Both the position numbers and the translations under genes were made by a program. Shown here piece by piece: positions 553-53,892 of a DNA stretch of 64,000 bases. Position 1 is the first letter of the stretch. Every line of letters begins with the position of its first letter. Source of the stretch: an uncultured Acidobacteriota bacterium. GTDB lineage: Bacteria; Acidobacteriota; Vicinamibacteria; Fen-336. The stretch is from assembly GCA_963720545.1 (NCBI GenBank), contig OY970399.1:800001-864000 (forward strand), read 5' to 3'. The notes beneath the pieces were generated by a model, which had not been told where the DNA came from, did not search any database, and was given only the letters and a program-made list of their open reading frames with translations.

Positions 553-1935
553 CTAACGCAATACGCTCCGGTTGAGGCTCCAGGCAGCCGCCAACGTGGC
601 CGAAAACACGACGACGGCGAGCCCGATGGCGGCTGGCAACGGCAATGAAGCGGCTCCCCACCAAGCGGCGAACGCGCAGGGGGCGGCAAGGACGAGCGCA
701 ATCGCCAGCGGCCGGAGGATGGGCACCGCGAAGCCACCGCGGCGGCAGGCCACGGCGTTCATCGCACAGCAGACGGTTTCGGCGCACAGGAACCCGAAAG
801 CGGCGCCCCGCGGCCCGAAACGCGGCAACAATGCGGCGGCGAGGAGGGCCGCCACCGCCACACGCAGCGCCGTCAAGCGCGGCACCCACGAGGCATGGCC
901 GGCGGCGATCAGGCACTGAAGGAGCAGGGCGTTCAGGAACAGCGGCACGACGGCAAGCCCGAGGAGCCGTAGCGCCGGCGCGGCGGGGGCGAAGCCGGTT
1001 CCCAGCAGGCGCAGCAGCTGCGGCGCCACGAGGAACAGGCCGGCCGCCGCGGGTGCCGCCAGCACGGCGACCGTCAGGACGGTGCGCCGGCGGGCGGAGT
1101 CGCCGCCATGGAGCGATTCGCGAGTCAAGGACGGCAGTGCTCCGGCGGCGATCGCGGTGGGCACCGAGAGGAGCGGCTCCACCAGCCGATGGGCGCCGGC
1201 GAAGAGACCCGCGTCCGCTGCGCCGCGAAAGAAAGGCAGCGCGAGGAGTTCGACCTTGGTGCTGAGCAGGGCCAGCGGGCCGTTGACACCCAGCGGCAGC
1301 GCGGCGCGCAGCACGCTGCGCACCCCGTGCGGCGCGACCGGCGGCGTGGGACCCGCGGTGCGCGACAGCAGCAGGAAACCGAGCGCCACCGCCGGCGCGG
1401 TGGCGGCGACGAACGCGGCGGCGACGACACCGAGCGTCGGGTTGCGGAGCGCGCAGACGACGCCGACGAGCCCGAACAGGCGCAGAGCGAAGAGCAGCAC
1501 GCCCTCCTGCACCGGCTCACCGCGCGCGCGCAGCGCGACGCCGAGGAATTCGGTCCAGTTGGCGAGCAGGAAGTAGACGAACAGCAGCCCGAGCACGGGC
1601 AGGAACGCCATCAGCAGGACCGCCGCGACGAGGCACACGGCGAACAGCACGGAGCGCGCGCGCAGGAAGTCGCCGAGTGCGAATTGCCGGGCGACGAGAG
1701 CCCGGGCGGTCAGCGCCTGCAGGCCGAGGTCGGAGGCTTCCGCCAGGATCGAGGCGATGACGAACATCCAGACGAAGGAGCCGAAGTCGGCAAGCGACAG
1801 CCGCCGCGCCAGGAGGATGGTGCCGACAAACGACAGGCCGCGGCTCAGGACCTCGGCCGCGAGCCGCACGAAGCTGCCAAACGTTGCCGCGCGCTCGGCC
1901 TCGCCGGCTGCCACTGGCGCCGCCGCGCCACTCAT
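553..1935 (-). CDS. Oligosaccharide/polysaccharide flippase (Wzx/MATE-like)
   Basis: 460 aa with many hydrophobic helices; LARRLSLADFG and SDLGL motifs. Confidence 0.8.
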   Translation of the reverse strand: MSGAAAPVAAGEAERAATFGSFVRLAAEVLSRGLSFVGTILLARRLSLADFGSFVWMFVIASILAEASDLGLQALTARALVARQFALGDFLRARSVLFAVCLVAAVLLMAFLPVLGLLFVYFLLANWTEFLGVALRARGEPVQEGVLLFALRLFGLVGVVCALRNPTLGVVAAAFVAATAPAVALGFLLLSRTAGPTPPVAPHGVRSVLRAALPLGVNGPLALLSTKVELLALPFFRGAADAGLFAGAHRLVEPLLSVPTAIAAGALPSLTRESLHGGDSARRRTVLTVAVLAAPAAAGLFLVAPQLLRLLGTGFAPAAPALRLLGLAVVPLFLNALLLQCLIAAGHASWVPRLTALRVAVAALLAAALLPRFGPRGAAFGFLCAETVCCAMNAVACRRGGFAVPILRPLAIALVLAAPCAFAAWWGAASLPLPAAIGLAVVVFSATLAAAWSLNRSVLR

Positions 1936-2037
1936 AGGTGCTTCATTTGTAGGGGTTTGCAGCCGCGTGTTAGCATTTTCACTTCGCGCCGCAACGATAC
2001 CTCAAGGCCCACGGCTACCTTCAATTTCAACGAACGC

Positions 2038-4855
2038 ATGAACCAGGTCACCGACCTTCGCGCGTCGCTCAACCTGCCGCGCACCGACTTTCCCATGAAG
2101 GCCAACCTTCCCGAGGCGGAGCCGCGCCGGCTCGAGCGCTGGCGGGCCATGGGGCTGAACGAAAAGATCCGTGAGGCGCGCCGCGGCTGCGAAACCTTCA
2201 TCCTGCACGACGGTCCGCCGTACGCGAACGGCCACCTCCACATCGGTCACGTCGTCAACAAGGTGCTGAAGGACCTCATGGTCCGCAGCCGCTCGATGGC
2301 CGGCTTCAACGCGCCCTACATCCCGGGCTGGGACTGCCACGGCCTGCCGATCGAGATCCAGGTGGACAAGGACCTCGGCGCGAAGAAGCACGCCATGTCG
2401 CCCGTCGCGTTCCGCAAGGCGTGCCGCGAGTATGCGGACAAGTTCGTCAACATCCAGCGCGACGAGTTCATGCGGCTCGGCGTCGGCGGTGAATGGGACC
2501 GGCCCTACAAGACGATGGACCCCGAGTATCAGGGCGACATCGTGCGCGAGCTCGCCACCTTCATCGACCGCGGCCTCGTCTACCGCGCGAGGAAGTCGGT
2601 GCACTGGTGCATCACCGACCGGACGGCGCTTGCCGAGGCGGAAGTCGAGTACGACGAGAACCACCAGAGCCCCACCGTCGACGTCGCCTTTGCGCTGCGG
2701 CCCGAGGACGCGGCGAAGCTTGCGGTCGCGCTTCCCCGCCCTTGCCGGCAAGGACGTGAGCGCCGTCATCTGGACGACGACGCCATGGACCCTGCCCGCG
2801 AACCGCGCGGTCGCCTTCCATCCCGACTACGAGTACGGCTTCTATCCCGTGACGGGCACGAACCGCGTGCTGGTCGTCGCCCGCGCGCTGCGCGAGGCGA
2901 CCGCGGCGCGGCTGGCGAAAGACGCTGCACGGCCGAGCGTTCTGGCCGTGGAGCCGCTGGCGCTCGCGAGCGGCGCGAGCCTCGAGGGGCTGCGCTTCCG
3001 CCATCCGTGGCTCGACCAGGATTCGCCCGCCGTGCTCGCCGGCTACGTCACCGCGGAGGCGGGCACCGGAGTGGTGCACACGGCACCCGGCCACGGCGCC
3101 GACGACTACATCACCGGCGTCAAGTACGGCCTCGAGATCTATTGCCCGGTGGACGAGTCGGGGCGCTTCCTTCCCGAAGTCGAGCACTTCGCCGGGCAGC
3201 GCGTGTTCGACGCCAACCCCGTCATCGTCGCCTTCCTCGGCGAGCGCGGCGCGCTGCTCGCGCACGACCAGCTGCGCCACTCGTACCCGGTGTGCTGGCG
3301 CTGCAAGCGGCCGATCATCTTCCGGGCCACCGAACAGTGGTTCATCGGCATGGACCGCGGCGGCTTCCGTGAGCAGGCGCTCGCCGCGATCGACAAGGTC
3401 GAGTGGTATCCGGCGTGGGGCCGGGAGCGCATGCACAACATGATCGCGAGCCGCCCCGACTGGTGCATCTCGCGGCAGCGGCTGTGGGGCGTGCCGATCC
3501 CGGCGTTCTATTGCAACAATTGCAGCGCGGTGCTGCTGAGCGGCGACACCGCGCGCGCGGTGGCCGACATCTTCGCGAAGGAAACCGCCGATGCCTGGTG
3601 GTTGCGCGAGGCCGCCGACCTGGTGCCCGCCGGCACCAGGTGCACGGCATGCGGCGGCAGCGAGTTCACGAAGGAGCACGACATCCTCGACGTCTGGTTC
3701 GATTCCGGCTCTTCGCAGGCGGCGGTGCTGGCGCGGCGCAGCGAACTGCGCTGGCCCGCCGACATGTACCTCGAGGGCAGCGACCAGCACCGCGGCTACT
3801 TTCACTCGTCGCTGCTCATCGGCGTCGGCACGCGCGGGCAGGCGCCGTTCGGCGCGGTGGTGACGCACGGCTTCGCGGTGGACAGCGAAGGCCGCAAGAT
3901 GTCGAAGAGCCTCGGCAACGTCGTCGATCCGCTGAAGACCCTGAAACAGTACGGCGCCGAGATCCTGCGCCTCTGGGTCACGATGGTCGACTACCGCGAG
4001 GACATGCGCATCTCGGACGAGATGGTGGCGCGCGCCGCGGAGGCGTATCGCAAGATGCGCAACACCTGCCGCTACCTGCTCTCGAACCTCGACGGCTTCG
4101 ACGCGGCACAGGACGCGGCGCCGGAGGCGAAGCTCGAGGAGATAGACGCCTACGCGCTGGCGCGCTTTCGCCAGGTGGCAGCGCGGGTGCGCGCCGGCTA
4201 CGACACGTACGAGCTGCACGTCGTCTACCATGAGCTGCTGAAGTACTGCGCCTCGGACCTCTCGTCCTTCTATCTCGACGTGCTGAAGGACCGGCTCTAC
4301 TGCGAACCCGCGCAGAGCCCGCAGCGGCGCTCCGCCCAGACGGTGCTGCACACCGTGGTCGACGGCATGGCGCGCCTGCTGGCACCGATCCTGCCGTTCA
4401 CGGCCGACGAGATCTACTGCGCGATGGCTGGCCGCGCCGACGCGTCGGTGCACGCCGCGCTCTTCCCGGCCACCACCGCTCCCGATGAACGGCTCATCGC
4501 GCGCTGGCAGCCGCTGCTCGAAGTGCGCGCGGCGGTCACCAAGGCGCTCGAGGAAGCGCGGGCGGCCAAGGACATCGCCTCGAGCCAGGAGGCACGGGTC
4601 GAGATCGCGGCACCCGCGGCGGTCGTCGCGCGGCTCGCCGAGTACCAGGGCGGCGACATCTCGTTCCCCGGCCGGCTGGCGAGCCTGTTCATGGTGAGCT
4701 CGGTGCGCGTTTCAGAAGGCCCCGCGACCGCGGTGCGCGTGCTGCGCGCCGCAGGCTCGAAGTGCGAGCGCTGCTGGAACTATTCGACCAAAGTGGGCGC
4801 CGCGGCGGCGCATCCATCGGTGTGCGAGCGCTGCGCCGCGGTGCTCGCCTCATGA
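2038..4855 (+). CDS. ileS: Isoleucyl-tRNA synthetase, with one +1 frameshift near 2724
   Basis: HDGPPYANGHLHIGH and GWDCHGLP in frame 1; WTTTPWT, GTGVVH, DWCISRQR, KMSKS and C-terminal CERC..CERC in frame 2; followed by lspA. Confidence 0.95.
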
Positions 4856-5370
4856 TCGCCGCGCGCCGCGGTTACTGGCTCATCGCGCTCCTGGTCGTGT
4901 GCCTCGACCAGCTGACCAAGTGGCTGGTGGAGCGCACCCTGCCGCTGCACCACGACCGGCCCATCATCGGCGGCTTCCTGAGCCTGCAGTACGTGCGCAA
5001 CGAGGGCGCCGCGTTCGGCATACTGTCGAACGCCGACCTGCCTTTCCAGGGAGTGCTGCTGTCGATCGTGGCGGCGGTCGCACTCGGCGCCATCGTCGTC
5101 TATGCCCTGCGCCTCAACCCGGCGCACAAGCTGGCGCAGCTGGCGCTGGCGCTGGTGATGGGCGGCGCGGTCGGCAACCTGCTCGACCGCGCGCGCTTCG
5201 GCTACGTCATCGACTTCGTCCTCGTCTATTGGCGCGAGCATCGCTGGCCCAACTTCAACGTCGCCGACTCCGCCATCAGCATCGGCATCTGCCTGCTGGT
5301 GCTCGACATCATCCGCTCGCCGGAAGCGAAGCGCGAAACCGACCTGGGCGCGACGGCGCCGCGCGGTTAA
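4852..5370 (+). CDS. lspA: Lipoprotein signal peptidase II
   Basis: DQLTK, NEGAAFG, GNLLDR, VIDF, FNVAD motifs; ATGA overlap with ileS stop. Confidence 0.95.
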   Translation: MIAARRGYWLIALLVVCLDQLTKWLVERTLPLHHDRPIIGGFLSLQYVRNEGAAFGILSNADLPFQGVLLSIVAAVALGAIVVYALRLNPAHKLAQLALALVMGGAVGNLLDRARFGYVIDFVLVYWREHRWPNFNVADSAISIGICLLVLDIIRSPEAKRETDLGATAPRG

Positions 5371-5383
5371 GGAAAGGACGCGC

Positions 5384-6178
5384 ATGTTCCCGAAGATCGC
5401 GACGCTTGGCCCGTTCACACTGCACACCTACGGCCTGCTGCTGGCGGTTGCCTTCCTGGTGGCGCTCTGGGTGGTCGCGCGCGAGGCGCGCCGCACCGGC
5501 CTCGACCCCGCGCGCATCACCGACCTGTCGATCTACGTGCTGCTCGCGGGCCTGGTGGGCGCGCGAGTGCTGCTGGTGGCCGTCGACTGGAGCCGCATCG
5601 ACTGGAACTGGCGCGACCTCCTCAACCTGCTGCAAAGCGGCGGCGTCTTCTACGGCGGCCTGCTGGGCGCGCTGCCGGTCGCGTGGTGGTATGTCCGCCG
5701 CCACCGCCTGCCGGGCTGGGCCACCGCGGACGTGCTGATCCCCGGCGTCGCCATCGGCCAGTCGATCGGCCGCCTCGGCTGCCTGTGCGCGGGCTGTTGT
5801 TACGGGCGGCCCACCGACGTGCCGTGGGCGATCACGTTCCGCAACGTCACCGCCAACCGCGAGATCGGCACGCCGCTCGACGTGCCCATCCACCCAACGC
5901 AGATCTACGAGTCGCTCGCGACGCTGGGCATCTTCTTCGTCCTGCTGGCGGTCGCGCGCCGCAAGAAGTTCGACGGCCAGGTCCTGCTCACCTATCTGGC
6001 ACTCTACGCGGTGGCGCGCTTCGTCATCGAGATCTACCGCGGCGATGCCGCCCGCGGCACGGTCTTCTCCGGACTGATGAGCACGTCGCAGCTCATCGCC
6101 GTCGTGATGTTCTTCGCCGCCCTCGTCCTGCTGCCGGTCCTGGCGAAGAAGGGCCGCGTTGGTACCCGCACCGCCTGA
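5384..6178 (+). CDS. lgt: Prolipoprotein diacylglyceryl transferase
   Basis: YGGLLG, IGRLGC, HPTQIYES, RFVIE motifs. Confidence 0.93.
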   Translation: MFPKIATLGPFTLHTYGLLLAVAFLVALWVVAREARRTGLDPARITDLSIYVLLAGLVGARVLLVAVDWSRIDWNWRDLLNLLQSGGVFYGGLLGALPVAWWYVRRHRLPGWATADVLIPGVAIGQSIGRLGCLCAGCCYGRPTDVPWAITFRNVTANREIGTPLDVPIHPTQIYESLATLGIFFVLLAVARRKKFDGQVLLTYLALYAVARFVIEIYRGDAARGTVFSGLMSTSQLIAVVMFFAALVLLPVLAKKGRVGTRTA

Positions 6179-44487: not shown

Positions 44488-45450
44488 CTAGAAGGAAAAT
44501 GGCAGGTCAGCCTGCACGATAGCGTAGCCGCGTAACCGCATCGGCGCGTCGAGCGCCCGCGAGTAGGCAAGGCCCGGACGGAACCACCTCTTCCCGATCT
44601 TGAAATGCAGCCGCGGCCCAGCGCCGAATGTCAGCTGCTCGCTCGCACGGGAGTCATTCCGAACTGGCGCGGCGTCGGTAATCCAACGCTGCAGTCGAAT
44701 CTCCGTCCCCAGCGATAGCCGTGGCGAAAGGAAATGTCCCGCATGCACGCCGGCGGTGAAGTTAGTGCGGTGCCCATCCTGTGCTACCGGTCCGCGTACC
44801 CGGTCAAGCTGCAACACGGTCGCCTCCGCCTGCAGCGTGAGTGCTCTCGTCACGCGGCCGATGCTCACTCCGCCAATCAGGGTCCAGTAGTCCACCGCAA
44901 AGAGCGCATTGTCCATTCCGGACCGTGCCGGTACTGCCGCTGCAAGCGCGGCAGCCGCCCCGGCATCCAGCCGGTCGCCGCCCCTGCTGCCGAGGGGAAC
45001 GGTGCTGGCGAGAAAAACAGACACCCGCCAGGCGCCGCGCAGAGGCCGCACATAGTTGATTCCCAGCAACGGGTTCGAGAATGCCGAGCCCCGCGACGCA
45101 AAGGGTGTCGACAAGCTGTGATGCACCCAGGTTTCTCGGAACACGGGCACCCAGCGAGGGCGGAGCCTCCATGTGATAGTCAGACTCGTGACAGCGGTCC
45201 GGGCCATCACAGCCGTGACTGGCATCTGCGAGAAGGCGATGGTCTGGTCGAGACGAACCACACTTGCGGCCGTCATCGGCCGCAGCAACCACGGCAACGA
45301 GTAAGGCGGCGCCGGCGGTGGCGCCGCGTGCACCGATTGCGCGCTGGCCGTCGCAGCCAAGCTCGTCAGACAGATAACCGCAAACGCCACGCGCCTCGGA
45401 TAAGAACACCCTGGTGCCAACCGTTGGGGGCACGTCAATATTGAAAGCAT
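44488..45450 (-). CDS. Hypothetical exported protein, possible outer-membrane beta-barrel
   Basis: Signal-like AATASAQ, alternating beta-strand pattern, terminal aromatic (ADLPFSF). Confidence 0.55.
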   Translation of the reverse strand: MLSILTCPQRLAPGCSYPRRVAFAVICLTSLAATASAQSVHAAPPPAPPYSLPWLLRPMTAASVVRLDQTIAFSQMPVTAVMARTAVTSLTITWRLRPRWVPVFRETWVHHSLSTPFASRGSAFSNPLLGINYVRPLRGAWRVSVFLASTVPLGSRGGDRLDAGAAAALAAAVPARSGMDNALFAVDYWTLIGGVSIGRVTRALTLQAEATVLQLDRVRGPVAQDGHRTNFTAGVHAGHFLSPRLSLGTEIRLQRWITDAAPVRNDSRASEQLTFGAGPRLHFKIGKRWFRPGLAYSRALDAPMRLRGYAIVQADLPFSF

Positions 45451-45465
45451 GGATACACCCTTTTC

Positions 45466-45481
45466 AGCAAGCGCCGTGCCA
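45466..45481 (-). promoter_or_regulatory. sigma54 promoter for the barrel-nrfHA unit
   Basis: Minus strand TGGCAC-GGCGC-TTGCT, full consensus. Confidence 0.8.
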
Positions 45482-46345: not shown

Positions 46346-47776
46346 ATGAAGAGCACCGAGACACGCGGCGGCCGCATCGTCGTTGTCGACGATGAAACGG
46401 GTGCGGCGTCGGCCCTCGAGACGCTGCTGCGTGGCGACGGTTATGAGGTCTGGAAGGCCACCGACGGAACGTCAGGCTTGGCGTTGGCGGAAGACGTTCG
46501 TCCCGATCTCGTACTCACCGACCTGCGAATGCCAGGACTCGACGGCGTCGAGCTGCTCACCCGCCTCAAGACGACGCAGCCGGACGTGATGATCATCATT
46601 ATGACCGCCTTCGGCACGGTCAAGACCGCGGTGAAGGCGCTGAAGCTCGGCGCCGAGGACTACCTGACGAAGCCGCTCGACATTGAAGAGCTGGAAATCG
46701 TGATCGAGAAGACCCTCACACGCAAGCGCCTGATAGAGGAAGCGCGTGGACTCCGCGAACGGCTCGACACGAAGTACAAGTTCAACAACCTCATCGGCGA
46801 AAGCGCCCAGATGGTCGCGGCTTTCAAGACTATTCGCCAGGTGGCGCCATCAACGGCGTCGGTGCTGTTGCTCGGAGAAAGCGGCACGGGCAAGGAGTTG
46901 TTCGCCCAGGCGCTTCACCAGAACTCGCCGCGCCGTGAGCGGCCGTTCGTAAAGGTAGCGTGTGGCGCGTTGCCCGAGTCTCTTCTTGAAAGCGAACTCT
47001 TCGGGCACGAGAAAGGCTCCTTCACCGGGGCAATCGCCAGCCGCGCAGGCCGCTTCGAGATGGCTGACGGCGGCACGCTGTTCCTGGACGAAATCGGCGA
47101 CATTTCCATGACCGTCCAGGTCAAGCTCTTGCGCTTCCTGGAAGAGCGCGAATTTGAGCGAGTTGGCGGCAATCGGACGCTGAAGGTCGACGTACGCGTG
47201 GTCGCCGCGACGCACCGCGACCTGCAAGTGCGCATCGCGGAGGGCTTGTTCCGTGAAGACCTTTACTACCGGCTCAACGTCGTCGAGATCAACATTCCGC
47301 CGCTGCGGGAACGCGCCGGCGATATCGCGCTTCTGGCCCATGAGTTCACCCAGCGGTTCGCGGTGATCAACGGCAAGAAAGCCTTGCGCCTTTCCGATGA
47401 AGCTCTCGCAGGCTTGCTGCGGCACCCGTGGCGAGGCAACGTGCGGGAACTCGAAAACGCGATCGAACGCGCCGTGGTCTTGAGCGAGGGTGGCGAGATC
47501 GAATTGACCCCCGGACACTTTCCAACGCTGCGCGCCCTCGGTCCCGCAGCGCCCGCCGGCTCCCCCGCCGACAAGTCGCTGCCCATTCCGGGAACTACGC
47601 TGGACGTGCTGGAGCGCGAGGCAATCCTGAGAACCCTCGAAGCCGTGGGCGGCAGCACGTCACGGGCAGCGGAGCTCCTCGACATCAGCCCGCGGAAGAT
47701 TCAGTACAAGTTGAAGGAATACCGCGCGCTCGGCGTTCTCGCCCCGGAGGAGCTCGACCCCAAGCAGGGTTCCTGA
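46346..47776 (+). CDS. sigma54-dependent response regulator (NtrC/AtoC-like)
   Basis: Receiver DLRMP, GESGTGKE, GSFTGA, LFLDE, GNVREL, Fis-type HTH. Confidence 0.95.
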   Translation: MKSTETRGGRIVVVDDETGAASALETLLRGDGYEVWKATDGTSGLALAEDVRPDLVLTDLRMPGLDGVELLTRLKTTQPDVMIIIMTAFGTVKTAVKALKLGAEDYLTKPLDIEELEIVIEKTLTRKRLIEEARGLRERLDTKYKFNNLIGESAQMVAAFKTIRQVAPSTASVLLLGESGTGKELFAQALHQNSPRRERPFVKVACGALPESLLESELFGHEKGSFTGAIASRAGRFEMADGGTLFLDEIGDISMTVQVKLLRFLEEREFERVGGNRTLKVDVRVVAATHRDLQVRIAEGLFREDLYYRLNVVEINIPPLRERAGDIALLAHEFTQRFAVINGKKALRLSDEALAGLLRHPWRGNVRELENAIERAVVLSEGGEIELTPGHFPTLRALGPAAPAGSPADKSLPIPGTTLDVLEREAILRTLEAVGGSTSRAAELLDISPRKIQYKLKEYRALGVLAPEELDPKQGS

Positions 47777-47878
47777 CGCAGAAACTGCGGCTGGCAGTTG
47801 CGCGCCGCGCAACTGCTGCGCGCGGATCCGCCAGTCCGGGGCTTTAGCCGCAAAAACGCGGCTGGCACGTTCCTCGCT
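47777..47878 (+). promoter_or_regulatory. sigma54 promoter with paired upstream sites
   Basis: CGCAGAAACTGCG (47777), CGCAACTGCTGCG (47808), TGGCAC-GTTCC-TCGCT (47863-47878). Confidence 0.75.
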
Positions 47879-47904
47879 GTTGCTCGTGACAACAGGAGCG
47901 ACAC

Positions 47905-48930
47905 ATGCCCAACCTGATGCGCGCCGCCGTGGTTCACGCCTTCGATCAGGCACTCGTGATCGAGCAAGTGCCGATTCCGAGTCCCGGCCCCGGGCAGGTT
48001 CTTGTCAAGATCGAGGCCTCGGGTGTCTGCCACACCGACCTGCATGCGGCCCGCGGCGACTGGCCCATCAAACCGGCGCTGCCATTCATACCGGGCCACG
48101 AAGGCGCGGGCTTCGTCGCGGCACTCGGTGCAGGAGTTGAGGGCTTTCAGGAAGGCGACCGAGTCGGGATTCCGTGGCTGCATTCGGCGTGCGGCCGGTG
48201 CTCCTATTGCGTAGGCGGTTGGGAAACGCTGTGCCAAGCGCAAACCAACACGGGCTATTCAGTCAATGGCGGCTTCGCAGAGTACGCCTTGGCCGAGGCG
48301 GCTTATGCAGCACCCATCCCCGCGACAATCAGCCTTACGGACGCTGCGCCGATATTGTGCGCCGGGGTAACGACCTACAAGGCCCTCAAAGAAACCGGCG
48401 CCAGACCCGGCGAGTGGGTGCTCATCTCCGGGATTGGGGGTTTGGGTCATATGGCGGTTCAGTACGCCCGCGCGATGGGCCTGCGCGTCGTCGCGATGGA
48501 CGTGACCAAGGAAAAGCTTTCGCTGGCCCACGAACTTGGTGCGGAGATCATGATCGACGCCCGGTCTGCGGACGCCGCGACGCGAGTTCAGTCGGCGACC
48601 GGCGGAGTACAAGGTGCGGTCGTTACGGCTGTTTGTGCGCCCGCCTTCCGCCAGGCGCTCGACATGGTGCGGCGCGGCGGCACCTGTGTGCTCGTGGGCC
48701 TGCCCCCGGGCGATTTCTCGATCCCCATCTTCGACGTGGTTTTGAAGCGCCTGACGATCCGTGGCTCGATCGTGGGCACGCGCAACGATCTTGCGGAGGC
48801 GTTTGCGCTCGCAACAAACGGCGGCGTCACTGCGAGATACGAGGTGCAGCCGCTCGAGTGCGTCAACACTGTGTTTGAGCGAATGCAGAGTGGCGTCATT
48901 GCCGGCCGCGTTGTTCTGGGGATGCGGTGA
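47905..48930 (+). CDS. adhP: Zn-dependent alcohol dehydrogenase, AdhP type
   Basis: [42 protein letters not shown]. Confidence 0.92.
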
Positions 48931-50345
48931 TGACCGACGCCTCGTGGACAAACGAGATCGCGTCGTATTACCGCTCTTCTTCCGTCAGGCATCGCCTCTC
49001 GGAAGCTTGCGGCGGGCAGGACGGCTCGCCGGACTCCTTCTCCAGCTGGAGTCTCGCAGCCTTCGGCGGCGCGCGCCGGCGATTCGAAGTAGACGGCGGC
49101 CCGGTGCCCTTCGGCAACGCCGACTTCAGCAGCATCCTCGACGAGGGCGCGGACTTGTGCCGGTCGCTGGCCGATCGCGGCGGCACACTGATCGTGCTGG
49201 ACGTCGATTACGTAAGCCCGGATAACGCCATCGAGGCATATTCCTCGCCGGCGATGGTGTTCCGCCGTCTCGAGCCGGTTCACCAAGCTGTGCTCCAGTT
49301 CTTCAGAGCACACGGCCTCGAACCCCGCGCAATTGGTACGGGACGGGGATATCACTACTCCTTGCGTGCACCTCTTGGCAGCGCGTTCCGAAGCAAGCTC
49401 GTTGCAATCGGCTCCGCGGGCGTACGCACCCTGCCGCGCGTGCGCCCCCCGCAACTCAGTCCCATGACAGTCCTGGACATGGAACACGCGCATGAAGGCG
49501 CCGGGCGTCTCCTGGAACACATCGCTCACCGCTTGATGCACCGGCTTCGCGGTGCAACCGAAGTGCCGGTAACGCTCGCTGACGTGCCGCCCCCTGGTCG
49601 CGGCCCGTTCATCTGTCTCGACCTCAGCGCCCACGGTGATCCCCTGTTCACGCGCCACATCCGCTGCGCCTTCTCGACCAACCAGAAGGCGGGAATCATG
49701 GAACTGCCTGGAGTACCGCCATTCACGGTCGCCCTTTCCCGCCGGGACGAACCGCTCGCGATGTTCCTGAGCGCGCGGCGCGACCCGACGGGCGCCACTT
49801 GCTGGGCGGCAATGGGCCGCGCCACTATCCCCGATGTCAGCGAGGCCGGAACTCTCTTGATGGATTACGAGAACGGCGCTGTCGCCCGGTTCCATCATGA
49901 GTTCGATAGCGGCCCAGCGGAGCTGTCGTCCTCGTGGCCGACGCGCCAGGATGAGTTCGAAGTCGCCGATCTCCCGGCATGCATGAGCACGCCCTTCGCT
50001 AATCCCAACCCCCTCTTGCTTCGTCCTTCGTGCCTGCGCTCCGTGGCACTCGGCATGTTGGGGCTTGGCGAGAGCCCGCGCGCAATCGCCGACGCCGTGA
50101 GCGTCGTCTATCGGGAAGAGCACGGTTGGCAACCGCCGTTCTCGCATTACGACGCCGCTCGCCGCGCGAATTTCTACGTGCGCGTGCTGTGCGGGGCGCT
50201 CGCCGACGGCCTCGATTCCGCGGCGCAGTTCTCGTGCGCGACCCAGGCTACACGCAACCTCTGCTTTCCCGGGCGCTGCAGCCAACCGGCACGGACCCTG
50301 TTTGCGTCGCTTGGCACGCTGGCCCAATTGAGGGCTCAACGGTGA
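48927..50345 (+). CDS. Putative archaeo-eukaryotic primase with fused PriL-like 4-Cys domain
   Basis: [29 protein letters not shown]-terminal LPACM..FSCxxxxxxxxCxxxxC. Confidence 0.6.
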
Positions 50346-51235
50346 TTCTCGTGCCTGGCATTTCCACCGGTATCCACTATCGCCGGCCGATCGGCGACTG
50401 CTTGCCGGCGATTCGCGAAGCGGGATTTACTCTGATCGAGGTATCGACCGCGCCTGATCATTTCGCTTACGGCAGCGCAACGGCAGTGCGGCAGCTCGCG
50501 GCCGCCGTCGCCAGCGAGGGCCTTCGGGTCCACTCCCTGCATGCTCCTTTCGGCCACGACATCGACATAACGAGCGAAAGCGAGTCGGCTCGCCGTCACG
50601 CGCTCGACAAGCTGAAGTCTGCGGCCGACGCTTTGGCGGCCCTTGGCGGCAAGATCCTGGTGGTCCATCCAGGCAGCGAGAATCCTCGCTGGGCGTGGGA
50701 GCGAGAACCCAGTATTCAACGCGCCGTGCACGGCATGCGATCGCTCGCGGCCGCGTGCTCGGATCGTGGCTTGACGCTCGCCATCGAGACCGCGCTGCCA
50801 CACCTGCTCGGCGGCAACGTCGGCGAACTCGACTGGATTCTCGAACAAGTGCCTGGCGCTCATGTGGGCGTCTGTATCGACACGTCGCACTGCTCGCTCG
50901 GCGGCACTCTATTCGATGCGTTCGCACGCTTCGCGCCAAGGCTCGTCCACCTCCAGGCGAGCGACAACCACGGCGTCACCGATGATCATTTGCCGCCGGG
51001 AAACGGGTTGGTCGATTGGCCGCGTGTTCGCGCCACCCTCGACGCTGTCCACTACCGTGGCTGTTTCATGCTCGAGATCAGCGGCGACGATGACGTGAGG
51101 AAGGAAACGCGCGCGGCTGCCGCCAGTGCGCAACACGCCCTCGATCCGGCGCGCGTCACTGAAGTTATGCACCGCGAAGCGGCCGCCTTGGCCAATTCGA
51201 TTGAAAGGAGTTCGCCATGGTCCTACAACGACTGA
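50342..51235 (+). CDS. AP endonuclease 2 / xylose-isomerase-like TIM barrel
   Basis: SLHAPF, VVHPG, AIET, CIDTSH, ASDN, DDHLPPG, MLE; GTGA overlap with preceding gene. Confidence 0.85.
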   Translation: MILVPGISTGIHYRRPIGDCLPAIREAGFTLIEVSTAPDHFAYGSATAVRQLAAAVASEGLRVHSLHAPFGHDIDITSESESARRHALDKLKSAADALAALGGKILVVHPGSENPRWAWEREPSIQRAVHGMRSLAAACSDRGLTLAIETALPHLLGGNVGELDWILEQVPGAHVGVCIDTSHCSLGGTLFDAFARFAPRLVHLQASDNHGVTDDHLPPGNGLVDWPRVRATLDAVHYRGCFMLEISGDDDVRKETRAAAASAQHALDPARVTEVMHREAAALANSIERSSPWSYND

Positions 51236-52209
51236 ACATCCAACGCGTGCTTTGCGCCGTCGATTTCTCGGAGTTTTCCGCCCAGGCGCAGGAACGGGCA
51301 GCAGCTATCGGGGGTTGGTTCGACGCCGAGCTGATGCTCGTACATGCGGTGCAGCCCATCATCGGCTGCGTTCCGCCTGACGGCGGCGTGCCTTACATAG
51401 CAATGACCACGGACATTCTGACTATTCAACAGCAGGAGGCCCGGCGCAGCCTGGAAGACGCCGCCAGACTGCTGCGCGAACGTGGCATGCGTGTGGAGAC
51501 GCGAGTGGTGGTGGACAGCCCCGCAACTGCAATCGCGGCGGCCGCCGCCGCATGGCCGGCGGATCTCGTCGTCATGGGAACCCACGGGCGCGCGGGTTTC
51601 GCTCATCTGCTGCTCGGCTCGGTCGCCGAACGGGTGCTGCGCACGGCACCTTGTCCCGTCCTGGTGGTGGGTAGAGAGACTGCGCAAAGCCCGTGGAGCC
51701 CGCTGTTCAGCCGGATCCTGTGTGCTGTGGATCTGACGGAAGCCTCCGAGCGAACCATCGACACGGCCTTCTCTGTTGCCGCTGAAACCCAGGCCACAAT
51801 CACGATGCTGCACGTAGTCGAAAGCCTGACCGGCAATAGTGCTGCAGTCCTCGGAATCCCCGAAACCGACCCTGCTTCGGTGCACTCCGAACTGAGAAAT
51901 CGTGCAGCCGCGAGACTGCTTCGAACCGTCCCCGATGCGACGGGGCGTTACTGCGAGATTTCCCAGCGTATCGAGATTGGCAGCGCCTGGCGGTCGATCG
52001 TGAAGGTCGCTGAGGAATTGGCGTCCGATGTCATAGTGGTGGGCGCACACGGCGGCTGGGGCGCAGGCCGGATGTTCCTGGGGTCGACCGCGAACCAGGT
52101 CGTCCGCCATGCCCACTGCCCCGTGCTCGTGGTGCGAGAGTCGAATGCGCGGCATGCGATGCCGCAACCCACGTTGAACGGCCCAGCGACTCGCCTAAAG
52201 CCCGCGTAG
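51217..52209 (+). CDS. Tandem-domain universal stress protein
   Basis: VLCAVDFS, MGTHGR..LGSVAE, GAHG..LGSTANQV; AGGAG RBS. Confidence 0.92.
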   Translation: MVLQRLNIQRVLCAVDFSEFSAQAQERAAAIGGWFDAELMLVHAVQPIIGCVPPDGGVPYIAMTTDILTIQQQEARRSLEDAARLLRERGMRVETRVVVDSPATAIAAAAAAWPADLVVMGTHGRAGFAHLLLGSVAERVLRTAPCPVLVVGRETAQSPWSPLFSRILCAVDLTEASERTIDTAFSVAAETQATITMLHVVESLTGNSAAVLGIPETDPASVHSELRNRAAARLLRTVPDATGRYCEISQRIEIGSAWRSIVKVAEELASDVIVVGAHGGWGAGRMFLGSTANQVVRHAHCPVLVVRESNARHAMPQPTLNGPATRLKPA

Positions 52210-53790: not shown

Positions 53791-53892
53791 CGCACATTCT
53801 GCGCCGCCCTTGTTGCCGGACGGCAACACTTGCGTTCAAACCGACTTGCTGTGCCATATAGGCGGTGTTTTGGACCGGGCACGTCGGTTGCA
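53791..53892 (+). promoter_or_regulatory. sigma54 promoter with paired upstream sites
   Basis: CGCACATTCTGCG (53791), GGCAACACTTGCG (53822), GGGCAC-GTCGG-TTGCA (53877-53892). Confidence 0.75.

Follow-up and report, generated by a model that had tools for sequence, protein, structure and literature searches.

A 64,000-nucleotide stretch of an uncultured Acidobacteriota bacterium (GenBank GCA_963720545.1, contig OY970399.1, positions 800,001 to 864,000; hereafter the window) encodes a member of the superfamily of archaeo-eukaryotic primases (AEP), from an undescribed bacterial family that has no Pfam or NCBIfam model. The protein joins an AEP catalytic domain to a C-terminal domain with four conserved cysteines. 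Its gene and that of a TIM-barrel enzyme resembling endonuclease IV (EndoIV) form a conserved two-gene unit that occasionally appears as one fused protein. The AEP gene almost always stands beside the gene for this EndoIV-like metal enzyme, and the two therefore probably make up a DNA-repair module not described before. We favor, with a probability of roughly 0.55, a stress-regulated iron–sulfur (Fe-S) primase-polymerase that works with a phosphodiesterase partner in excision-type DNA repair.

The AEP open reading frame (ORF) lies on the plus strand, begins at GTG 48927 or ATG 48930 and ends with a TGA at 50345, encoding 472 or 471 amino acids; a database copy of the gene (P0002) uses the ATG. 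Its GC content (0.659) equals that of the window, and GC at third codon positions (GC3, 0.765) is like that of neighboring genes. An antisense ORF of 583 amino acids (48588..50339, minus strand) covers nearly all of the gene; since it is the plus frame that has hundreds of relatives, the antisense frame is probably an artefact of high GC. The ORF is a real gene, as the initial annotation, made from the letters of the DNA, had observed. That annotation proposed a fused primase of the PriS-PriL type with AEP motifs I to III (D92/D94, H143 and D232) and four PriL-type cysteines (C352, C437, C446 and C451), and direct translation places every one of these residues where it had been assigned. All eight are also invariant in 33 relatives sharing 40–57% identity, together with R243, R246 and S250. 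Conservation extends to a wider sample of 93 diverse representatives of 430–530 amino acids, in which D92 is found in 87 (Glu in three more), Asp or Glu at position 94 in 88, H143 in 84 and D232 in 92; R243 and R246 occur in 90 each, and the cysteines in 83 (C352), 81 (C437), 83 (C446) and 72 (C451). The named Asp, His and Cys residues are therefore kept in homologs (72 to 92 of the 93), and, judged from these alignments, the conserved set is more than chance.

Existing resources do not capture this family. The protein had no match in Pfam (E ≤ 1), NCBIfam (E ≤ 10), PADLOC, PHROGs or the sequences of the PDB (single sequence and profile). Of 7,999 candidates that a word-indexed search scored, 187 were relatives; the closest shares 57% identity, and almost all of them carry the label hypothetical. 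An exhaustive search over 50% clusters gave 355 representatives at E ≤ 1e-3 (116 at E ≤ 1e-30). A FastTree phylogeny of 135 rows divides the family into three groups. Distribution within the phylum is patchy, with carriers in 6 of the 401 genomes and in 4 of the 228 genera; the window's own genome, a single contig of 4.09 Mb that is 94.8% complete, has one copy. In two congeneric genomes, G336 (C7:67479-68841) and G353 (C5:1654232-1655577), the gene matches as two pieces (approximately residues 12–220 and 211–459) and may be split or broken. Two members (P0116 and P0122) carry a CBS-domain extension at the N-terminus, and no longer fused forms of the family (827–2360 amino acids) turned up, which is weak evidence. 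In the literature searched, we found no paper on this family and none that pairs an AEP with a xylose-isomerase-like or EndoIV-type partner.

We examined the architecture of the protein with an AlphaFold2 model built from a 33-row alignment, which at full length reached a predicted local distance difference test (pLDDT) of 90.8 and a predicted template modeling score (pTM) of 0.92. Foldseek and VIA comparisons of the catalytic part find the AEP fold. Against the PDB, the six Foldseek matches at E ≤ 1e-3 are all to Prim-PolC or to LigD-Pol; RepB', CAPP and PriS/Pri1 come next. The three values tabulated for each of four structural matches are 17.4, 3.6 and 256 for Prim-PolC (5op0_B); 16.1, 3.2 and 232 for LigD-Pol (2fao_A); 12.5, 3.9 and 202 for CAPP (7nqf_B); and 12.2, 3.4 and 212 for PriS (1v33). 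The VIA matches to Prim-PolC, LigD-Pol and PriS cover model residues 1–313. When the whole model was compared with viral structures, Foldseek gave weak AEP-type matches, one of them at E ≤ 1e-3. Motif I of AEPs has the form hhhDxD/E and sits on a beta strand; motif II reads sGxGxH and motif III hD. In the model, D92 and D94 (LIVLDVD) fall in the strand of residues 86–96, H143 falls in that of residues 141–149, and D232 ends that of residues 228–232, such that the motif set is present, conserved and in the expected strands. In hhalign, TG-RGYH (H143) aligns with LigD motif II, TSGsKGLH.

These results uphold the proposed AEP motifs and, in part, the proposed likeness to PriS: the fold is that of an AEP, but the structure is nearer to LigD-Pol and Prim-PolC than to PriS. 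By its model, the catalytic domain belongs to the AEP superfamily and lies structurally nearest the bacterial repair clade, of which it is not a sequence-level member. The protein is a variant within the superfamily, and the structural interpretation in the initial annotation is supported. Template-dependent nucleotidyl transfer or priming by this domain is predicted.

The C-terminal domain is all-helical and modeled with a pLDDT of 90.7. Foldseek found no match for it in the PDB at E ≤ 1e-3, and the protein had no match to the Pfam model of PriL (PF04104) at E ≤ 1. A wide VIA search showed resemblance to the DNA-binding domains of primase and photolyase. By ESM features, the neighbors of the C-terminal part are PriL C-terminal clusters (0.91 and 0.90), PriX (0.88) and PriCT_1 (0.87); for the whole protein, its own family is followed by a PriX cluster (0.95) and by clusters from Nanobdellota with both DNA_primase_S and DNA_primase_lrg (0.94). 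The four cysteines that had been called PriL-type, invariant in the 33 relatives and kept in 72 to 83 of the 93 representatives, are arranged with C352 84 residues ahead of the C437/C446/C451 trio, which spans 15 residues. In the account of the photolyase PhrB, its cysteines 350, 438, 441 and 454 (the first 86–89 residues ahead of the second) resemble the primase pattern, and the PriL C-terminal domain (PriL-CTD) is described as strikingly similar to photolyase's active-site region (PMC3204975). These lines of evidence, each modest, agree on a putative domain of the PriL-CTD/photolyase type, in which the four cysteines would hold a [4Fe-4S] cluster.

Beyond the protein itself, the TIM-barrel gene is the conserved partner. 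We compared 32 genome loci, 13 of which belong to the window's clade (Acidobacteriota, Binatia and one bin labeled Spirochaetales). Within that clade, the TIM gene adjoins the AEP gene on the same strand at 11 of 13 loci, and the other two have 399 and 106 nt downstream. Start–stop overlaps of 4 nt between the two genes recur in the genome loci. The other carriers among the 401 phylum genomes have the TIM gene adjacent in four of five cases, with a weak nfo-model match 150–240 nt past the AEP match. For a distant clade, a metagenome scan with a 10-sequence alignment turned up 308 relatives, and the 80 best loci were retained. The TIM gene lies directly downstream in 61 of these 80, and 16 of the remaining 19 end within 100 nt, leaving 61 of 64 loci with room. 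The two genes in these metagenome loci are separated or overlapped by −59 to +61 nt and are fused in none of the 61; fusions were seen in P0147 (747 amino acids) and P0201 (724 amino acids), both in the tree group farthest from the window's. At these loci, the link to the partner gene is near-obligate.

Two of the three roomy metagenome loci that lack a TIM gene (L138 and L150) have, in its position, a gene of the uracil-DNA glycosylase (UDG) superfamily (3e-9 and 9e-10, respectively). At L138, two divergent Ku genes (242.6 and 236.7 bits; cut-off, 150) stand upstream of the AEP gene, giving the order Ku-Ku-AEP-UDG at 1561-5661; the UDG-family gene of L150 spans 4676-5419. Ku appeared among the annotated neighbors at 1 of 29 metagenome loci, namely L138, and not among the annotated neighbors of the genome loci. 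Within the genomic context, DNA repair is supported chiefly by the exchange of UDG for TIM and by the Ku neighbors. Neither ligase, helicase nor integrase was found in the module among annotated neighbors. The recurring stress-related neighbors encode universal stress protein (Usp), Hsp20, Cu/Zn superoxide dismutase (SOD), BON-domain proteins and P-type ATPases, with Usp near the AEP gene at L001, L002, L006, L007 and L091. P-type ATPase and Usp genes recur next to the family in other genomes.

The TIM-barrel partner scores 155.2 bits with PF01261 (AP_endonuc_2, xylose-isomerase-like), for which the Pfam gathering cut-off is 31.1; its NCBIfam matches (CbiR, psicose epimerase, IolE and Nfo) are all below cut-off. 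A profile of 12 partners matched MJ1311 (3wqo) in the PDB at 2e-24, ketose 3-epimerases at ~1e-12 and endonuclease IV at ~2e-7. Aligned by hhalign with 15 Nfo sequences, the partner profile gave a probability of 98.1% (E 9e-14, 231 columns), and its invariant residues H67, H109, E149, D180, H183, D214, H216 and E245 align with the invariant Nfo residues H68, H108, E144, D178, H181, D228, H230 and E260. Together with a ninth, these Nfo positions are the ligands of the trinuclear metal site, and sugar epimerases are not known to keep more than four of the nine. On that basis, with eight of the nine aligned, the partner appears to be a phosphodiesterase that resembles EndoIV but forms its own subfamily outside Nfo. 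Table 1 of PMC2770678 lists the uncharacterized MJ1311 as the EndoIV homolog predicted for M. jannaschii. A predicted complex of the AEP and TIM proteins scored 0.02 against a mark of 0.32, which says nothing on binding either way. The possibility that the partner stands in for a lost Nfo was rejected: the window's own genome has no nfo gene over cut-off, but four of the five other carriers have canonical nfo. Across the phylum sample, nfo was tallied in 28 of 41 genomes, or 27 of 40 without G024, which is flagged unpublished.

Table 1. Coordinates of the AEP gene, its domains and motifs, and neighboring features in the window
Feature	Position	Strand	Basis or remark
AEP-type primase-polymerase gene with C-terminal four-Cys domain	48930..50345	+	471 aa from ATG
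AEP catalytic domain, residues ~1-315	48930..49871	+	VIA match range 1-313; motifs I-III and R243/R246/S250
Motif I, DVD (D92/D94)	49200-49208	+	Direct translation
Motif II, RGYH (H143)	49344-49355	+	Direct translation
Motif III, D232	49620-49622	+	Direct translation
R243/R246/S250 segment	49653-49688	+	Direct translation
C-terminal all-helical domain, residues 318-472	49878..50342	+	C352, C437, C446, C451; putative [4Fe-4S]
C352 codon	49980-49982	+	Direct translation
C-x8-C-x4-C (C437/C446/C451)	50235-50279	+	Direct translation
Partner gene, AP_endonuc_2 (xylose-isomerase-like) TIM barrel	50342..51235	+	PF01261, 3.2e-45
Sigma-54-dependent response regulator	46346..47776	+	Sigma54_activat 2.2e-73, Response_reg 2.3e-30, HTH_8 1.2e-11
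Sigma-54-type -24/-12 box, TGGCACGTTCCTCGC (TGGCAC-N5-TCGC)	47863-47877	+	27 nt upstream of adhP ATG
adhP-type zinc alcohol dehydrogenase, first operon gene	47905..48930	+	NCBIfam AdhP, 351.7 bits vs 344
Tandem-domain universal stress protein	51217..52209	+	Usp 6.1e-64, two stretches; start overlaps TIM end, 19 nt

In the window, the AEP gene is the second in an operon of the order adhP-AEP-TIM-Usp, with overlaps of 1, 4 and 19 nt between successive genes and no terminator-like site seen inside it. The tandem Usp gene is probably in the same transcript as the TIM gene. Translational coupling of the AEP gene to both adhP and the TIM gene had been proposed. At this locus, the overlaps bear it out: the adhP stop TGA (48928-48930) and the AEP ATG (48930) have one base in common, and the AEP stop TGA (50343-50345) overlaps the GTG of the TIM gene at 50342. 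As a conserved neighbor, adhP did not hold up, and we rejected it as a functional partner, with an alcohol dehydrogenase (ADH) at 0 of 32 loci. The absence of Ku next to this locus, likewise noted at the outset, is borne out by a Ku gene approximately 1 Mb away; elsewhere, the genome has three canonical LigD-Pol domains (208–309 bits), that one Ku, two xth genes and no nfo over cut-off. The response regulator encoded directly upstream combines a receiver, an AAA+ sigma54-interaction domain and a Fis-type helix-turn-helix (HTH) domain and is the probable activator of the adhP operon. Public RNA runs, which contained 6% of sampled words, gave four small contigs on 47850-51300; the longer two lie on adhP (48115-48345) and at 51041-51250, and none lies on the AEP gene.

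Two further sigma-54-type boxes are likewise intergenic. One, a perfect match at 45467-45481 on the minus strand, precedes a minus-strand unit that ends in nrfH/nrfA-like genes and is headed by a 320-aa ORF (44488-45450, minus strand) whose start resembles a signal peptide and for which Pfam gave no match. The other, at 53877-53891 on the plus strand, precedes a second tandem-Usp gene. Together with the adhP box, these three sites around the activator gene may define one regulon of nitrite ammonification, fermentation and stress. The surrounding 30 kb (34770-63307) encodes four tandem-Usp proteins, two P-type cation ATPases and two zinc ADHs, as well as NrfHA, phosphoketolase, acetate kinase, a GGDEF protein and a PAS histidine kinase, and resembles an island of genes for hypoxia or dormancy.

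From fold and context, we infer the following course of repair. The TIM enzyme would incise abasic sites or clear blocked 3' ends, and the AEP domain would then fill the short gap or prime across it. The role of the PriL-like domain would be to grip the 5' end or the initiating nucleotide, matching that of the PriL-CTD in primases, and the steps of the two proteins together would constitute an excision-repair-type module. Such a module would be made in oxygen-limited or stationary stress, when non-replicating cells would rely on this kind of repair. Expression under these conditions is probable, because the operon stands behind a candidate sigma-54-type promoter, beside its probable activator and among genes of stress, anaerobic respiration and fermentation.

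Several observations weigh against this account. The consensus for sigma-54 promoters is TGGCAC-N5-TTGC, from which the adhP box differs by one mismatch; over the whole window, this motif occurs no more often than by chance (9 found, 5.3 expected). At the sequence level, hhalign of the AEP protein against 21 LigD-Pol domains of the same phylum reached a weak probability of 38%. Some family members lack the cysteines, among them the TIM-fused P0201, which has lost all four. The module has no ligase. On the side of the partner, plain profile scores put it nearer to MJ1311 and the ketose 3-epimerases than to endonuclease IV, and its scores with the nfo model (TIGR00587) are 28.4–29.5 bits against a cut-off of 129.65. 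At the ninth position, Nfo H215 aligns with an invariant partner Gln (Q205) rather than a His, an invariant H203 standing two residues earlier. There is also no evident gap for the partner to fill, given the two xth genes of the window's own genome and the canonical nfo of four of the five other carriers. Finally, the third tree group (PVC, that is, Planctomycetes-Verrucomicrobia-Chlamydiae, with Auribacterota and Hydrogenedentota) has no TIM gene within 6 kb at its 18 loci. At 9 of these 18, the downstream place is taken by a family paralog that keeps the DxE, SSGYH, LD and Cys set.

Such tandem paralogs, which suggest a two-subunit form, occur in L015 (5989-7398 and 7535-9031), L016, L018, L020, L021, L026, L028, L029 and L031. 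A divergent gene for a DUF401 permease is often found upstream of them.

Other explanations account for parts of these data. A stand-alone primase would serve damage tolerance or replication restart by PrimPol-like repriming, synthesizing de novo dinucleotides downstream of lesions while the TIM enzyme only trims ends. The missing ligase would fit, as would the ESM features that place the protein by Nanobdellota clusters with both primase-subunit families. The combination of an AEP and a PriL-CTD-like domain is also, in the descriptions of these systems, the architecture of self-sufficient primases, namely the Nanoarchaeum equitans monomer (PMC10250227) and PolpTN2 (PMC3973330; PMC5862659). 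We regard repriming as an unlikely explanation of this protein.

It is more improbable still that the pair has no role on DNA and instead consists of a nucleotidyltransferase and a sugar-phosphate isomerase or phosphodiesterase that, under stress, make or remodel a small metabolite or signal containing a nucleotide. Among named families, the TIM protein matches best the cobamide-remodeling phosphodiesterase CbiR (2.4e-12, below cut-off) together with the ketose 3-epimerases, which would suit such chemistry, and the neighbors (ADH, Usp, Hsp20, SOD and P-type ATPases) are mostly metabolic or stress genes, not repair genes. A few members also have N-terminal CBS domains, which as a rule sense adenosyl ligands. 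However, all structural neighbors of the catalytic domain are nucleic-acid polymerases or primases, the C-terminal domain resembles the DNA-binding domains of primases and photolyases, and the TIM protein keeps His and Asp at Nfo-invariant positions that sugar epimerases are not known to share. The UDG and Ku contexts of L138 and L150 likewise speak for DNA. We give the least credence to a module for mobile-element replication or anti-phage defense, which would liken this gene to most bacterial AEPs with PriCT domains. The patchy distribution of the family in the phylum would agree with it, and nearly all bacterial AEPs that are joined to PriCT domains related to PriL are described as encoded by mobile elements (PMC5862659). 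The annotated neighbors, however, include no integrase, helicase, plasmid or phage gene; PADLOC and PHROGs gave no match; the GC content of the gene is that of the window, with GC3 like that of the neighbors; and no long fused forms were found.

Set against described systems, the family draws its parts from several. Prim-PolC and LigD-Pol (5op0, 6sa0, 2fao and 2iry) are nearest in fold and, from the published account, in likely role (PMC7442782), but their families (TIGR02778 and PF21686) have no family-level sequence match to the AEP protein, and they lack both the four-Cys PriL-like domain and the TIM-barrel partner. The single-chain primases of Nanoarchaeum equitans and other Nanobdellota and PolpTN2 are described with the same order, an AEP domain followed by one of PriL C-terminal type (PMC10250227; PMC3973330; PMC5862659). 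Those enzymes are archaeal and replicative or plasmid-borne, whereas the present family is chromosomal and found in bacteria, has no match to PF01896 or PF04104, has a catalytic part nearer to LigD-Pol and is accompanied by an EndoIV-like partner. The AEPs of the PrimPol-PV1 supergroup with PriCT-1 or PriCT-2 are likewise bacterial proteins whose AEP part is joined to a helical relative of the PriL-CTD; as presented by Kazlauskas et al. 2018 (PMC5862659), they are encoded on mobile elements and usually joined to helicases, unlike this family, which shows no mobile-element context among its annotated neighbors. The same source aligns only two of the four PriL cysteines in PriCT-2, whereas the present family keeps all four; the main text of that source contains the terms "Acidobacteria" and "endonuclease IV" 0 times. 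For the C-terminal domain, the nearest known counterparts are the [4Fe-4S] domain of PriL and the Fe-S domain of prokaryotic (6-4) photolyases such as PhrB (FeS-BCP photolyases). For the partner, endonuclease IV and MJ1311 are likewise AP_endonuc_2 TIM barrels, and MJ1311 is the closest solved relative; the partner differs from endonuclease IV in scoring below the nfo cut-off and in having Gln at one ligand position.

Bacterial AEPs are thought to be used mainly in Ku/LigD end joining, in Prim-PolC gap filling or on mobile elements, and the four-Cys PriL domain counts as a trait of replicative primases in archaea and eukaryotes. A bolder extension of the repair reading, which we consider doubtful and offer tentatively, is a widespread and unrecognized bacterial repair system. 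In it, a [4Fe-4S] PriL-type domain would let a LigD-like polymerase prime de novo, possibly sensing redox as well, while bound in a fixed complex to a nuclease resembling EndoIV (or, in certain lineages, to a UDG or to a second paralog), for repair in non-growing, oxygen-starved cells. If true, the division of labor between PriS and PriL would predate or span the bacterial–archaeal split, and the family would connect the PriL-CTD to Fe-S photolyases.

A chromosomal bacterial family that locks an AEP and a PriL-type domain to an EndoIV-like enzyme would add an excision-repair or priming route to the known uses of bacterial AEPs. It would also offer a compact single-chain model for the role of the primase Fe-S domain and add a data point on the origin of PriS-PriL. 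Because the family is sizeable, has no Pfam or NCBIfam model and has no describing paper in the literature searched, defining it (355 representatives at 50% identity) would allow many soil and sediment genomes to be better annotated.

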